Assembly: GCF_044324785.1 (NCBI RefSeq)
Contig: NZ_CP172127.1
Source: Escherichia coli
Lineage (GTDB): Bacteria > Pseudomonadota > Gammaproteobacteria > Enterobacterales > Enterobacteriaceae
Length of the DNA: 64,000 nucleotides
Direction: 5' to 3' (one strand)
The notes under the pieces are model-generated. The model was given only the letters and a program-made list of their open reading frames with translations. It was not told where the DNA came from and did no database searches. Positions 1 through 53,324 of the stretch are shown here, one piece after another. The first letter of the stretch is position 1, and each line of letters begins with the position of its first letter. The translations under genes and the position numbers were made by a program.

Positions 1-341
1 TGATGACCATCTTCCAGCTCAGTAGCATTTCGCCAAACGCGACCAAAGAGTTCGGTCTGGTTTCTTCCGTGTCGGTCATCTTTACACTGGTGCCATATCT
101 TTACACCTGTGCGGCGTTACTGCTGCTCGGCCACGGTCACTTTGGTAAAGCACGCCCGGCATATCTGGCAGTTACTACCATTGCCTTCCTCTACTGCATC
201 TGGGCCGTGGTGGGGTCCGGGGCGAAAGAGGTTATGTGGTCATTTGTCACCCTGATGGTCATCACCGCCATGTATGCGCTGAATTACAACCGGCTGCATA
301 AAAACCCGTATCCCTTAGATGCACCAATAAGCAAAGATTAA
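1..341 (+). CDS. adiC: Arginine:agmatine antiporter AdiC, C-terminal fragment (gene starts upstream of window)
   Basis: ORF 3..341 hydrophobic APC-transporter-like C-terminus; position immediately upstream of eptA matches E. coli synteny. Confidence 0.75.
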
Positions 342-365
342 TTCCCCTTAATCCAGCAAACATAA

Positions 366-405
366 AAGCCAACCTTAAGAACTTAAGGTTGGCTTAATTT
401 TGCTT
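366..405 (+). terminator. Hairpin plus T-run downstream of adiC
   Basis: Inverted repeat aagccaacctt...aaggttggctt followed by aattttgcttt. Confidence 0.6.
382..398 (+). promoter_or_regulatory. Putative BasR/PmrA box (CTTAAG-N5-CTTAAT direct repeat) upstream of eptA
   Basis: cttaaggttggcttaat about 45 bp upstream of the eptA ATG; matches the YTTAAK-N5-YTTAAK PmrA half-site arrangement. Confidence 0.55.
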
Positions 406-444
406 TGCGAGCATATGCGCACTTTGTTCGATGGAAACACCGTG

Positions 445-2088
445 ATGTTGAAGCGCCTACTAAAAAGACCCTCTTTGAATTTACTCGCCTGGCTATTGTT
501 GGCCGCTTTTTATATCTCTATCTGCCTGAATATTGCCTTTTTTAAACAGGTGTTGCAGGCGCTGCCGCTGGACTCGCTGCATAACGTACTGGTTTTCTTG
601 TCGATGCCGGTCGTCGCTTTCAGCGTGATTAATATTGTCCTGACACTAAGCTCTTTCTTATGGCTTAATCGACCGCTGGCCTGCCTGTTTATTCTGGTCG
701 GCGCGGCTGCACAATATTTCATAATGACTTACGGCATCGTCATCGACCGCTCGATGATTGCCAATATTATTGATACCACTCCGGCAGAAAGTTATGCGTT
801 GATGACACCGCAAATGTTATTAACGCTGGGATTCAGCGGCGTGCTTGCTGCGCTGATTGCCTGCTGGATTAAAATCAAACCAGCCACCTCGCGCCTGCGC
901 AGTGTTCTTTTCCGTGGAGCCAATATTCTGGTTTCTGTACTGCTGATTTTGCTGGTCGCCGCACTGTTTTATAAAGACTACGCCTCGTTGTTTCGCAATA
1001 ACAAAGAGCTGGTGAAATCCTTAAGCCCCTCTAACAGCATTGTTGCCAGCTGGTCATGGTACTCCCATCAGCGACTGGCAAATCTGCCGCTGGTGCGAAT
1101 TGGTGAAGACGCGCACCGCAACCCATTAATGCAGAAAGAGAAACGTAAAAATTTGACCATCCTGATTGTCGGCGAAACCTCGCGGGCGGAGAACTTCTCC
1201 CTCAATGGCTATCCGCGTGAAACTAACCCGCGGCTGGCAAAAGATAACGTGGTCTATTTCCCTAATACCGCATCTTGCGGCACGGCAACGGCAGTTTCAG
1301 TACCGTGCATGTTCTCGGATATGCCGCGTGAGCACTACAAAGAAGAGCTGGCACAGCACCAGGAAGGCGTGCTGGATATCATTCAGCGAGCGGGCATCAA
1401 CGTGCTGTGGAATGACAACGATGGCGGCTGTAAAGGTGCCTGCGACCGCGTGCCTCACCAGAACGTCACCGCGCTGAATCTGCCTGGTCAGTGCATCAAC
1501 GGCGAATGCTATGACGAAGTGCTGTTCCACGGGCTGGAAGAGTACATCAATAACCTGCAGGGTGATGGCGTGATTGTCTTACACACCATCGGCAGCCACG
1601 GTCCGACCTATTACAACCGCTATCCGCCGCAGTTCAGGAAATTTACCCCAACCTGCGACACTAACGAGATCCAGACCTGTACCAAAGAGCAACTGGTGAA
1701 CACTTACGACAACACGCTGGTTTACGTCGACTATATTGTTGATAAAGCGATTAATCTGCTGAAAGAACATCAGGATAAATTCACCACCAGCCTGGTTTAT
1801 CTTTCTGACCACGGTGAGTCGTTAGGTGAAAATGGCATCTATCTGCACGGTCTGCCTTATGCCATCGCCCCGGATAGCCAAAAACAGGTGCCGATGCTGC
1901 TGTGGCTGTCGGAGGATTATCAAAAACGGTATCAGGTTGACCAGAACTGCCTGCAAAAACAGGCGCAAACGCAACACTATTCACAAGATAATTTATTCTC
2001 CACGCTATTGGGATTAACTGGCGTTGAGACGAAGTATTACCAGGCTGCGGATGATATTCTGCAAACTTGCAGGAGAGTGAGTGAATGA
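445..2088 (+). CDS. eptA: Phosphoethanolamine transferase EptA (PmrC), lipid A modification
   Basis: 547-aa product from ATG 445 ([18 protein letters not shown]...), N-terminal TM helices plus sulfatase-like domain; 4-bp overlap with basR. Confidence 0.92.
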
Positions 2089-2753
2089 AAATTCTGATTG
2101 TTGAAGACGATACGCTGTTATTGCAGGGATTGATTCTGGCGGCGCAAACCGAAGGCTACGCGTGCGATGGCGTGACAACCGCGCGGATGGCGGAACAAAG
2201 CCTTGAGGCCGGTCATTACAGCCTGGTGGTACTGGATTTAGGGTTACCCGACGAAGATGGACTGCATTTTCTCGCCCGTATCCGGCAGAAAAAATACACC
2301 CTGCCGGTACTGATCCTCACCGCTCGCGATACGCTGGCCGACAAAATCGCCGGGCTGGATGTCGGTGCCGATGACTATCTGGTGAAGCCTTTTGCGCTGG
2401 AAGAGTTACACGCCCGTATCCGCGCCCTGCTACGACGCCATAATAATCAGGGCGAAAGTGAGCTGATTGTTGGCAATCTGACGCTGAATATGGGTCGCCG
2501 TCAGGTCTGGATGGGCGGTGAAGAGTTGATTCTGACGCCCAAAGAATATGCTCTGCTGTCACGGTTAATGCTCAAAGCAGGCAGTCCGGTGCATCGGGAA
2601 ATTCTCTACAACGACATCTATAACTGGGACAATGAACCCTCGACTAACACCCTGGAAGTGCATATCCACAATCTACGCGACAAAGTGGGCAAAGCCCGTA
2701 TCCGCACCGTGCGCGGATTTGGCTATATGCTGGTCGCGAATGAGGAAAACTAA
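2085..2753 (+). CDS. basR: Two-component response regulator BasR (PmrA)
   Basis: 222 aa, MKILIVEDD receiver domain plus OmpR-type winged helix C-terminus. Confidence 0.93.
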
Positions 2754-2762
2754 TTGAATTTG

Positions 2763-3854
2763 ATGCGTTTTCTGCGCAGACCAATATCGCTGCGCCAACG
2801 GCTGATATTGACCATCGGGGCCATTTTGTTGGTGTTTGAGCTGATCAGCGTCTTCTGGCTATGGCATGAAAGTACCGAGCAGATTCAGCTGTTTGAGCAG
2901 GCGCTACGCGACAATCGCAACAACGATCGCCACATCATGCGTGAGATCCGCGAGGCGGTCGCCAGCCTGATTGTCCCCGGCGTCTTTATGGTCAGCCTGA
3001 CGCTATTTATCTGCTATCAGGCGGTACGCCGCATCACCCGGCCGCTGGCGGAGCTGCAAAAAGAGCTGGAAGCGCGCACCGCCGACAATTTAACGCCTAT
3101 TGCCATTCACAGTGCCACCCTCGAAATCGAAGCGGTGGTTTCGGCGTTAAACGATCTGGTCAGTCGCCTGACCAGCACGCTGGATAACGAAAGGTTGTTT
3201 ACCGCTGACGTCGCGCACGAACTGCGAACGCCACTGGCGGGGGTGCGTTTGCATCTGGAACTGCTGGCGAAAACGCATCACATTGATGTAGCACCGTTAG
3301 TGGCACGGCTTGATCAGATGATGGAGAGTGTCTCCCAGCTACTGCAACTGGCGCGTGCCGGACAGTCATTTTCTTCCGGGAATTATCAACATGTAAAACT
3401 GCTGGAAGATGTCATTCTCCCCTCGTATGACGAACTCAGTACCATGCTCGACCAGCGCCAGCAAACCCTGCTATTGCCAGAGAGCGCCGCCGACATCACC
3501 GTTCAGGGTGATGCAACCCTGCTGCGGATGTTATTGCGAAACCTGGTAGAAAATGCCCATCGTTACAGCCCGCAAGGCAGCAACATTATGATTAAGCTGC
3601 AAGAAGATGGCGGAGCGGTCATGGCCGTTGAAGATGAAGGACCGGGTATTGATGAGAGTAAATGCGGGGAGTTGAGTAAAGCGTTTGTACGTATGGACAG
3701 CCGTTATGGCGGGATTGGTCTGGGGTTAAGTATTGTCAGCCGCATTACACAGTTGCATCACGGGCAGTTTTTCCTGCAAAACCGGCAAGAAACTTCCGGC
3801 ACGCGGGCCTGGGTACGGCTGAAGAAAGATCAGAACGTGGCAAACCAGATATAA
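2763..3854 (+). CDS. basS: Sensor histidine kinase BasS (PmrB)
   Basis: 363 aa from ATG 2763; TM segments, H-box ADVAHELRTPL, ATPase G-boxes. Confidence 0.9.
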   Translation: MRFLRRPISLRQRLILTIGAILLVFELISVFWLWHESTEQIQLFEQALRDNRNNDRHIMREIREAVASLIVPGVFMVSLTLFICYQAVRRITRPLAELQKELEARTADNLTPIAIHSATLEIEAVVSALNDLVSRLTSTLDNERLFTADVAHELRTPLAGVRLHLELLAKTHHIDVAPLVARLDQMMESVSQLLQLARAGQSFSSGNYQHVKLLEDVILPSYDELSTMLDQRQQTLLLPESAADITVQGDATLLRMLLRNLVENAHRYSPQGSNIMIKLQEDGGAVMAVEDEGPGIDESKCGELSKAFVRMDSRYGGIGLGLSIVSRITQLHHGQFFLQNRQETSGTRAWVRLKKDQNVANQI

Positions 3855-3919
3855 AGAAAGCTGCTGACCACCAGCACGCTGAACACGGTAGTTAAACTTT
3901 CATAAACACGGTTTTTCAT
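3830..3919 (-). CDS. pmrR: Small membrane protein PmrR (29 aa), antisense-overlapping the basS 3' end
   Basis: Reverse strand reads atgaaaaaccgtgtttatgaa... = MKNRVYESLTTVFSVLVVSSFLYIWFATF*; below the 60-aa ORF-track cutoff. Confidence 0.7.
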   Translation of the reverse strand: MKNRVYESLTTVFSVLVVSSFLYIWFATF

Positions 3920-3988
3920 TGCACTCTCCTCCGTTAACCTGGAGGAGAGTATGCGCGTCAGAGATTAAGTGAACCTTAAGAGTTCAAT

Positions 3989-4018
3989 TGGCCTGATAAG
4001 ACAGCGTCACATCAGGCC
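3989..4018. repeat. REP-like palindrome / bidirectional terminator between basS and proP
   Basis: ggcctgataagacagcgtcacatcaggcc inverted repeat. Confidence 0.6.
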
Positions 4019-4030
4019 ATCCGTTTCAGC

Positions 4031-50010: not shown

Positions 50011-50254
50011 AGATTGCAGCGTTATCGAGCCGTATACCGTTCTGGATTGCGATAAAAAATCGTCTGAGATGACAAAAATATTGCGGCTAAAAAGTATACT
50101 TTTACACTGGCGAAGAAACGTCGGTGACATACAATTAAAGCATCAACACCAACCGGAACCTCCACCACGTGCTCGAATGAGGTGTGTTGACGTCGGGGGA
50201 AACCCTCCTGTGTACCAGCGGGATAGAGAGAAAGACAAAGACCGGAAAACAAAC

Positions 50255-50290
50255 TAAAGCGCCCTTGTGGCGCTTTAGTTTTGTGTTTGC
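50255..50290. terminator. Perfect 13-bp-stem hairpin with flanking T/A runs (bidirectional terminator-like)
   Basis: aaactaaagcgcc-cttgt-ggcgctttagttt; a partial second copy of the right arm occurs at 50418..50445. Confidence 0.6.
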
Positions 50291-50983: not shown

Positions 50984-51307
50984 ATGTCCCATCAGAAAAT
51001 TATTCAGGATCTTATCGCATGGATTGACGAGCATATTGACCAGCCGCTTAACATTGATGTCGTCGCAAAAAAATCAGGCTATTCAAAGTGGTACTTACAG
51101 CGGATGTTCCGCACGGTGACGCATCAGACACTAGGTGATTACATTCGCCAACGCCGCCTGTTACTGGCCGCCGTTGAGTTGCGCACCACCGAGCGTCCGA
51201 TTTTTGATATCGCAATGGACCTGGGTTATGTCTCGCAGCAGACCTTCTCCCGCGTTTTCCGTCGGCAGTTTGATCGCACACCCAGCGATTATCGCCACCG
51301 CCTGTAG
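50984..51307 (+). CDS. soxS: AraC-family superoxide-response activator SoxS
   Basis: 107 aa, MSHQKIIQDLIAWIDEHIDQPLNIDVVAKKSGYSKWYLQRMF... Confidence 0.95.
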   Translation: MSHQKIIQDLIAWIDEHIDQPLNIDVVAKKSGYSKWYLQRMFRTVTHQTLGDYIRQRRLLLAAVELRTTERPIFDIAMDLGYVSQQTFSRVFRRQFDRTPSDYRHRL

Positions 51308-51312
51308 TTTTA

Positions 51313-52896
51313 TTACCCGCGCGTTAACCCCCGCGCGGGTAATTGCTCCATCCATTGCATAAACACCTGCGGCGGCATCGCCTTCGCAAAGAACCATCCC
51401 TGACAATAGCGCACGCCGCGTTTGCGCAGCCAGTTAACCTGCTCCTCAGTTTCGACGCCTTCAGCGATCGTTTTTAACCCCAGACTGTGCGCCAGCTCGA
51501 TGATGTGTTCCGCAATCAAATGACTGGTTTTGTGGGTGGTCAGCGTCTCAACAAACGATTTATCGATTTTCAAAATATCGACATTCAATGATTTAAGGTT
51601 ATGCAAGTTAGAGTAGCCAATACCAAAATCATCAATTGCCACTTCGTAACCAGCCTGGCGGAAAGCCAGAATAATTGGTGTCATTTTGTCGACATCAAGA
51701 AATGCATGTTCAGTCACTTCAAATTTAATTTGCTGTGGACGCACCGCGTATTGCTCTGTTTTCTGATTGGTTCGCGCTATCAACCGTGACGTATGAAAAT
51801 CGGAGGCCGACAGGTTAATAGAAACATAGCGATCGGCATGTGTTGCCAGGTACGCGCCCAGATCGCGGAAGACATTATCAATAACATAATCAGTTACCTG
51901 TCCGATCATCCCCTCCTTTTCTGCCAGCGGAATAAACTCTGCCGGATTCATTACTTGCCCCTGCTCACCAGGCCAACGTAACAATGCTTCAGCTCCGATA
52001 CATTTTTCTGTTTTGATATCGATTATTGGCTGGTAATAAAGGCAAAGTTGATGTTTTTCGAGGGCGCGTTGCAATTTGCGTTTGGGAGACAAATAGTTTT
52101 GTCGAATACGTAGCCAGAGTAATAACAGAACAAGACTCCCCAAAATACCGGCGGGTAACGCAAAAATAAGATGATTATAAAAATGCGCTATAAGACGTTG
52201 ATATGAAGTCGCAACAATAGCTGCAATCGGGCGTTTTGTCGAATAAACTGTCGCATATAAATAGCCATTTCTTTGTACGATTAAATCATTCAAATGAATC
52301 AGCGGAGAAAACGTTGCTGCCGAGGCCTCGTTGCTTAACGAGAAAAAGGTTTTTGTCACCGTATCATACACACCCCATTGCAATGTCGGATCATCGGACA
52401 TCACTTCACTCCAGAAGAGAGGGTTGATAACCGCCACATAATTTCCCCGCTGCATATAGGTCATTTTATAGCCAGAGAAAAAAGGCGTATCGCGGTAATA
52501 ATAGATAGAAACGTTAGGTTCACGCTTATAATCGGCCGGTGCAATCGTATAGCCGTTTACAGGCGCTATCAGCGATGAGCATAAAAAATGGTTATCACGG
52601 GCATAGATCAATTCATTAATATAAAGATAGCCACGAATAATATTCAACATTCGCTTTTGATGGGCTGGAGTGCAAACTTGCCCCTGATAGCGTTCAGCAG
52701 CATCGCTCACTAAATCTGCCTGGCGAATGACCAGCTCGGATTTATCCAGTGCCAGTTGAGCAAAAGTTTGGAGCTGACTATTCACTTCTGATTTTGCCCA
52801 AAGGAAGGCAATCCATAGCGACAGAATGATGGGAAAGAGAACTAAAAAGATAATGCCCGGCAACGCCAGTAATTGGTGTCGTGCATGATGACTCAT
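51313..52896 (-). CDS. pdeC: Cyclic-di-GMP phosphodiesterase PdeC (YjcC; CSS-motif sensor plus EAL domain)
   Basis: 528 aa from ATG 52896; periplasmic CSS-type domain between two TMs, C-terminal EAL domain. Confidence 0.9.
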
Positions 52897-53324
52897 TGCT
52901 ATCAATTTCCTGCCTGTTTATACCCGGTCATTGCAAGGTGAAAACCCTGGTTACCGACATCTTTAGATAAATCTTACGGTATAAATAGCACTTTTGCCTG
53001 ATTTGAAATTGATACCTTTTTAATGGTCACCTGGATAAAAATAATTCATTGATATTCAAATTAATTTTCTACAGGAATGCAGAGGCGGCGGGAAGATATG
53101 CCCTTAATGCCACTGAAAAACCACATAATCTGTACAGCAATAAAAGTCACGGCCTAATCTGGCTAACAAACAATCAATTGTGATATAGTTCACAAAATTA
53201 ATGAAACAAACAGAGTGTTTCATTTTTGTGTCCTGCAAGCCCCGCGATAGCCAGAGTGTACCACGCCTCCCGTGAACAACGCCGCGCTGTCCAGGGCATC
53301 GGCTCTTTTCAGAGGAATTGTTTG

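Follow-up and report, generated by a model that had tools for sequence, protein, structure and literature searches.

In Escherichia coli, eptA-basRS governs the modification of lipid A with phosphoethanolamine and the chromosomal resistance to polymyxin and colistin. The BasR/PmrA site of Salmonella pmrC was reportedly footprinted by Wosten and Groisman in 1999, and the E. coli BasR box is said to have been defined by Ogasawara et al. in 2012 as a direct repeat of TTAAnnTT. PmrA boxes verified in Salmonella have the form CTTAAG-N5-xTTAAT (PMC3973317), and yjdB/pmrC belongs to the validated targets of PmrA (PMC1525208). The pmrC(eptA)-pmrAB promoter (Salmonella pmrC; E. coli eptA/yjdB), which corresponds to the same locus as the one described here, carries CTTAAG-N5-CTTAAT over the -35 region and depends on PmrA and Fe3+. 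In E. coli, a reporter with the 300 bp upstream of eptA displayed a 7-fold induction by Fe3+ that was lost in a pmrA mutant (PMC2904496), and the motif of the eptA promoter has been used in EMSA (PMC12774351). No eptA/pmrC promoter data were found in the Klein 2021, FRET 2022 and Dam 2013 papers. A different precedent comes from the overlaps between terminators and promoters of co-directional operons, of which tufB-secE and three other ribosomal operon pairs have been tested (Brandis et al., 2019; PMC6735719). In these cases, the hairpin or the tail of the upstream terminator overlaps the downstream promoter, the overlapped elements are the -35 and -10 hexamers of constitutive sigma-70 promoters, and both the coupling and the effects on fitness were measured (PMC6735719).

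The locus analysed here lies at the start of the window, that is, the whole stretch of 64 kb of E. coli DNA that was examined, and corresponds to adiC-eptA-basR-basS (Table 1). The intergenic region between adiC and eptA comprises 103 bp and is identical to that of K-12 MG1655, which makes the results published for K-12 directly applicable; the K-12 RefSeq record contains no annotated feature within this region. The box itself does not differ from that of pmrC(eptA), and the difference is that the Escherichia box doubles as the 3′ arm of a hairpin located after adiC. The existence of the box was already known, and in the literature searched we found neither a description of the Escherichia box as the 3′ arm of a perfect hairpin after adiC nor a paper discussing adiC together with the eptA promoter. 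As in the overlaps of Brandis et al., the upstream hairpin reaches into a downstream co-directional promoter: its right arm and its tail fall within the box and within the spacer between the box and the -10 element, an assignment to that class that presumes that the hairpin is a terminator. In contrast to those cases, the overlapped element is the site of an activator, and the physical overlap is evident from the sequence. It is relaxed in Salmonella and in the Citrobacter freundii group, where the gene order is kept. As a terminator-promoter overlap, the arrangement is tidy but fairly ordinary.

Table 1. Position of the features of the adiC-eptA-basRS region, numbered from the first nucleotide of the window
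Feature	Coordinates	Strand	Remarks
adiC (arginine:agmatine antiporter), 3′ end	3..341	+	TAA stop at 339-341; ORF list and RefSeq annotation
Variable spacer from the adiC stop to the hairpin	342..365	+	Differs between species of Escherichia by substitutions and an indel
Left arm of the palindrome, AAGCCAACCTTAAG	366..379	+	Outside the canonical box; -55..-42 from the predicted eptA start
Right arm of the palindrome, CTTAAGGTTGGCTT	382..395	+	First 14 nt of the BasR box
BasR/PmrA box, CTTAAG-GTTGG-CTTAAT	382..398	+	Half-sites 382-387 and 393-398; -39..-23 from the predicted start
T-rich tail, TTAATTTTGCTTT	394..406	+	Presumed U-tract of the hairpin; also spacer between the box and the -10
Predicted extended -10	406..414	+	TG (406-407), c, GAGCAT (409-414); from column conservation
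Predicted eptA transcription start, A	421	+	7 nt past the -10; inferred
eptA (phosphoethanolamine transferase, 547 aa)	445..2088	+
basR (response regulator binding the box)	2085..2753	+
basS (sensor kinase)	2763..3854	+	Coordinates transferred from the K-12 annotation
Second BasR/PmrA box, CTTAAGGTTCACTTAAT	3964..3980	-	Exact match; 61 nt upstream of pmrR

A first-pass annotation, made from the sequence of the window, had placed a direct repeat CTTAAG-N5-CTTAAT at positions 382..398 and had interpreted it as the BasR/PmrA box of eptA. The repeat was confirmed, and its interpretation is well supported. When the window was scanned for YTTAAK hexamers repeated directly at a period of 11 bp, with 5 bp between the two, the sequence CTTAAGGTTGGCTTAAT was found at exactly these positions with 0 mismatches to YTTAAK-N5-YTTAAK. 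The whole window contained 2 matches to this pattern, compared with 0.14 expected, and at least two matches were obtained in 0 of 100 shuffles. The same positions also fit the definition of the site as a direct repeat of TTAAnnTT, represented here by TTAAGGTT (383-390) and TTAATTTT (394-401). Downstream of the box, at a distance of 10 nt, comes the hexamer GAGCAT with a TG in front of it, and with a transcription start inferred near A421 the box would extend from -39 to -23. The location of a box over the -35 region is the arrangement expected of an activator of the PhoB type that replaces the -35 element. A spacing of 10 nt between the box and a hexamer of the form nAnnnT is also present at pmrR (CATACT), ugd (TATTCT) and arnB (TAAAAT). 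The possibility of a divergent promoter directed from the left arm of the palindrome was considered and rejected, since the second half-site on the minus strand reads CTTTTA and no nAnnnT hexamer is found 10 nt beyond it.

Conservation of these elements was analysed in a set of eptA loci from 57 enterobacterial species, from which 54 distinct sequences were aligned. The distance between the box and the ATG of eptA remained within 61-67 nt in 57/57 loci, whichever gene was located upstream. Escherichia, Citrobacter and Salmonella have adiC at that place, Klebsiella, Kluyvera and Raoultella a gene of the CofD family, and Pantoea and Tatumella still other genes. Twelve of the 17 positions of the box were invariant or nearly so over the 54 sequences, and so was CTTAAGGTTGnCTTAA among these orthologues. 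The columns corresponding to the predicted -10 were also preserved, with T+24 in 39/54 sequences, G+25 in 49/54, A+28 in 54/54, A+31 in 50/54 and T+32 in 54/54. Given this conserved geometry, it appears unlikely that the start of eptA is incompatible with the position of the box. The exact match to the consensus, the behaviour of the box in the 54 sequences, the fixed distance to the ATG, the conserved -10 and the reporter data (PMC2904496) together provide good support for the conclusion that 382-398 is the already known BasR/PmrA site of the eptA promoter. The CofD-family gene upstream of eptA in Kluyvera has its stop codon (TAA) within the CTTAAG of the first half-site (L032, L033, L049 and L057, positions ~2437-2442), which indicates that insulation of eptA by a terminator is not universal. 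In this genus, the preceding coding sequence ends within the eptA promoter.

Direct reading of the sequence upstream of eptA reveals aagccaaccttaag (366-379), the dinucleotide aa (380-381), cttaaggttggctt (382-395) and then aattttgctttg. A repeat search recognised the arms 366-379/382-395, of 14 nt each, as 100% complementary with a gap of 2 nt; the statement of the first-pass annotation that the repeat lies inside the right arm and the tail of a hairpin stem was thus confirmed, in that the right arm is made of the first 14 nt of the box. The RNA corresponding to 362-404 was predicted to fold into a 13-bp stem with a 4-nt loop and an energy of -18.8 kcal/mol (z = -6.2; 0/200 shuffles were as stable), and a consensus scan classed both strands of the hairpin as terminator-like. 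The 64-kb window contains 3 perfect inverted repeats whose arms reach 12 nt or more, of which the palindrome at 366-395 is the longest, and dinucleotide shuffles of the window gave a mean of 0.03 such long inverted repeats. The other two are located at 50251-50281 and 51312-51343. The repeat at 51312-51343 lies between a plus-strand ORF (50984-51307) and a convergent ORF on the minus strand (51313-52905) and has the look of a bidirectional terminator.

The palindrome shares several characteristics with canonical Rho-independent terminators, as it is a stable stem-loop followed by a T-rich tract and its stem starts 24 nt past the stop codon of adiC in the same direction as the gene. The U-tract after the hairpin, UUAAUUUUGCUUU, passes a simple terminator scan. 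In contrast to canonical terminators, the stem is AT-rich (G-C pairs account for 5/13) and the U-tract UUAAUUUU is broken by the AA of the second half-site of the box, an interruption that exists because the second half-site requires AA. A d'Aubenton-Carafa-type score, computed with modern energy parameters and meaningful only in relative terms, was -9.5 for the adiC-eptA hairpin and +31.7 for the terminator of gnd, which places the former well below the canonical terminator. The gnd terminator has a canonical run of eight U, unlike the hairpin upstream of eptA. At the hairpin, Rfam returned no RNA family: the sole match was a chance-level one to Qrr on the minus strand (E = 0.87; 22 bits, compared with a gathering score of 50). 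Neither adiC nor eptA has an entry in the 3′-end supplements of Adams 2021. Taken from sequence and comparison, it is plausible that the hairpin acts as the terminator of adiC. Regarding the proposal of the first-pass annotation that the same 40 bp serve as a terminator and as an activator site, the activator half is therefore well supported, and the terminator half stays at this level of plausibility.

Comparison with other BasR promoters places the eptA arrangement in context. The genes pmrR and ugd resemble eptA in having a co-directional gene upstream, a 3′ hairpin, a PmrA box and a -10 at 10 nt. In both of them the hairpin and the box are separate: a G+C-rich hairpin GGCCTGAT...ATCAGGCC is found after the stop of proP (~3993-4021, minus strand), 12 nt upstream of the box of pmrR, and in K-12 the canonical terminator of gnd lies 37 nt before the box of ugd. 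In contrast, the two elements are fused at eptA. The neighbour of arnB is divergent and no separate upstream hairpin was found there. The promoters of pmrR, ugd and arnB have no palindromic arm, and a general requirement of the palindrome for the binding of BasR was ruled out on this basis. The box of pmrR sits in the convergent gap between basS and proP. The Rfam family STnc630 matches 3823-3988 on the minus strand with 178.5 bits, and because its model begins 8 nt upstream of the box, this 'sRNA' family appears to include the promoter and the coding sequence of pmrR.

The relationship between the hairpin and the 3′ end of adiC was explored in the 27 loci of the set where adiC is adjacent to eptA. 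The more stable a separate hairpin between adiC and the box is, the less stable is the box hairpin (Spearman rho = -0.77; the loci represent ~9 lineages and are phylogenetically non-independent). In Escherichia, C. amalonaticus and C. youngae/werkmanii, no strong alternative hairpin was found and the box hairpin has an energy of -14 to -20 kcal/mol. In Salmonella and the C. freundii group, a REP-like, G+C-rich hairpin is present after adiC and the box hairpin is reduced to -1.6 to -3.6 kcal/mol. These REP-like hairpins, GCCGGATA..TATCCGGC and GCCCGATG..CATCGGGC, are insertions between adiC and the box (~2395-2425 in L006/L007; ~2370-2400 in L010-L014 and L051-L053). Among the 27 loci, the decay of the box hairpin is confined to those with another hairpin after adiC. 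Further, the comparison revealed a compensated change, CATTAAG/CTTAATG, in L011, L014 and L052, and in four Citrobacter loci a C-to-T change in the left arm that results in a G-U pair, by which the structure of the RNA is kept and the symmetry of the DNA is broken. Altogether, the comparative data favour a role of the hairpin, as predicted from these sequences, at the 3′ end of the adiC transcript. They also reveal that the palindrome is not tied to adiC and that its top is a promoter feature in its own right, observations that temper the terminator reading and are detailed below.

The proposal that we regard as reasonably probable is a dual use of the element, in which the box would activate eptA and the arm of the hairpin that contains it would end the adiC mRNA. 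Positions 366-414 would be read twice, once as double-stranded DNA and once as nascent adiC RNA. As DNA, BasR-P bound to 382-398 in place of a -35 element would recruit RNA polymerase to the predicted extended -10 (406-414), and transcription of eptA-basRS would start near position 421. As RNA, 366-395 would form a hairpin of 13/14 bp followed by the U-tract, and this hairpin would constitute the 3′ end of the adiC mRNA, acting as a moderate intrinsic terminator and/or as a 3′ stabiliser, and would shield the eptA promoter from acid-induced transcription of adiC. Because recognition by BasR fixes the right arm, the left arm would be constrained to be its complement, and the AA of the second half-site would represent a cost in the quality of the U-tract.

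A different interpretation, which we consider unlikely, is that the palindrome is a part of the eptA promoter that works at the level of DNA, without being a terminator, and that the adiC transcript ends by other means. The left arm could then contain additional or inverted half-sites for BasR, serve as the operator of a different symmetric regulator or be contacted by alpha-CTD. Its location at -55..-42 would correspond to the zone of upstream promoter contacts. Also in its favour is the conservation of the inner TTAA (375-378; -7..-4 from the box, 8 bp before the first half-site), which is kept in 48-50 of the 54 eptA promoters, including those of genera without adiC and without a T-tail such as Klebsiella, Kluyvera and Raoultella, some of them with an A-rich tail. 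The conservation of the inner part, CCTTAA..TTAAGG, where there is no terminator-like tail indicates that the top of the palindrome is a promoter feature in its own right. The TTAA is not present at the promoters of pmrR, ugd and arnB. It may be a third, eptA-specific contact of BasR, and in E. coli the outer eight pairs alone look like an added terminator arm. In C. amalonaticus (L008, 2420-2435, minus strand), the left arm, read on the opposite strand, amounts to an entire PmrA box, so that two full boxes generate a 16-bp palindrome, and L005 and L016 come close to this situation. Two further loci point in the same direction: in L024, the palindrome comprises 11 bp, fits the GTTGT spacer of that locus and lacks a T-tail, and Intestinirhabdus (L021) retains a 12-bp palindrome behind a yjdF-like gene although a separate hairpin is present. 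Against an interpretation at the DNA level stand the lack of such an arm at pmrR, ugd and arnB and the loss of the outer arm in Salmonella, whose pmrC promoter is reportedly the footprinted reference case (Wosten and Groisman in 1999). In E. coli, the minus-strand reading gives a poor box, CTTAAG-N5-CTTTTA, with no -10 downstream, and the C-to-T changes that become G-U pairs preserve the structure of the RNA and not the symmetry of the DNA. Moreover, direct repeats in head-to-tail orientation are what response regulators of the OmpR/PhoB family bind (PMC3973317).

It seems improbable that the long palindrome is a relic without function, left behind for instance when the box was duplicated in inverted orientation, and that transcription of adiC is terminated by Rho or continues by read-through. 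A relic would account for the sub-canonical U-tract and for the decay of the outer arms in several lineages without obvious harm. In a formal test of covariation of the stem over the 54 sequences, 78% of the cells were paired, the outer pairs were present in about half of the sequences, and 3 pairs had changed on both sides, a number equalled in 241/500 shuffles; this tempers the terminator reading as well. However, the palindrome is preserved in E. coli, where the exact 30-mer 366-395 was found in 5386 of the 5412 complete genomes with the locus (99.5%), compared with 3955 (73%) for the preceding 30-mer 336-365; the exact 30-mer that follows, covering the tail and the -10, was found in 5399. 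The left arm is also identical in the four aligned Escherichia sequences (E. coli K-12-like, B2, E. albertii and E. whittamii), whereas the 24 nt just 5′ of it differ among them by substitutions and an indel, and B2 strains show only ~91% identity over the locus. Decay limited to loci where a replacement hairpin exists, together with the compensated change in L011, L014 and L052 and the matched spacer variant in L024, is likewise difficult to reconcile with a relic. As for a coincidence between a box-like repeat and an inverted repeat, CTTAAG is self-complementary and two nearby copies of it therefore yield the 6-bp top of the stem for free. Such a coincidence is nevertheless exceedingly improbable: a shuffled window should contain only 0.14 boxes and 0.03 long inverted repeats on average, and both features are conserved across species. 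Pure chance was excluded on these grounds.

A physiological consequence of the dual use of the element can also be imagined. The gene adiC is strongly induced by anaerobic acid stress, and PmrB/BasS responds to mild acid and Fe3+. Because both units respond to acid, the fusion of the two elements might constitute a regulatory device through which arginine-dependent acid resistance and lipid A modification/polymyxin resistance are reciprocally tuned by one 40-bp element; we regard this as a speculative idea with a low probability. In one direction, RNA polymerases transcribing adiC would end their run within the eptA promoter, where they would block or displace BasR and RNA polymerase. In the other, BasR-P bound to 382-398 would halt the polymerase before it has copied the 3′ arm, and the resulting adiC mRNA would lack the hairpin and be unstable. 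Whether the eptA promoter is insulated from adiC or coupled to it affects the resistance response under acidic, anaerobic conditions such as those of the gut. The locus would further illustrate how the binding site of a transcription factor can turn into the arm of a terminator, where the factor fixes one arm, the other evolves to complement it, and the AA of the site impairs the U-tract. The practical value is modest and consists of a better annotation of the 3′ end of adiC and of the eptA promoter, and of a compact natural design for a module in which a terminator is combined with an inducible promoter.

Some observations on individual genomes were made during the comparison. In the blood isolate E. 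coli GN04171 (L066), a copy of IS1 lies directly against the left arm of the palindrome, with the junction at the position equivalent to 370 of the window, and eptA-basRS has been deleted together with its flanking genes as far as alsA. The short contigs L059 and L060 (230-250 bp), which bear the labels Comamonadaceae and Methylobacterium, are 100% identical to E. coli eptA and probably represent assembly contamination. The contig of L024 is labelled Chryseobacterium and carries a cofD-eptA locus of the Enterobacteriaceae type.
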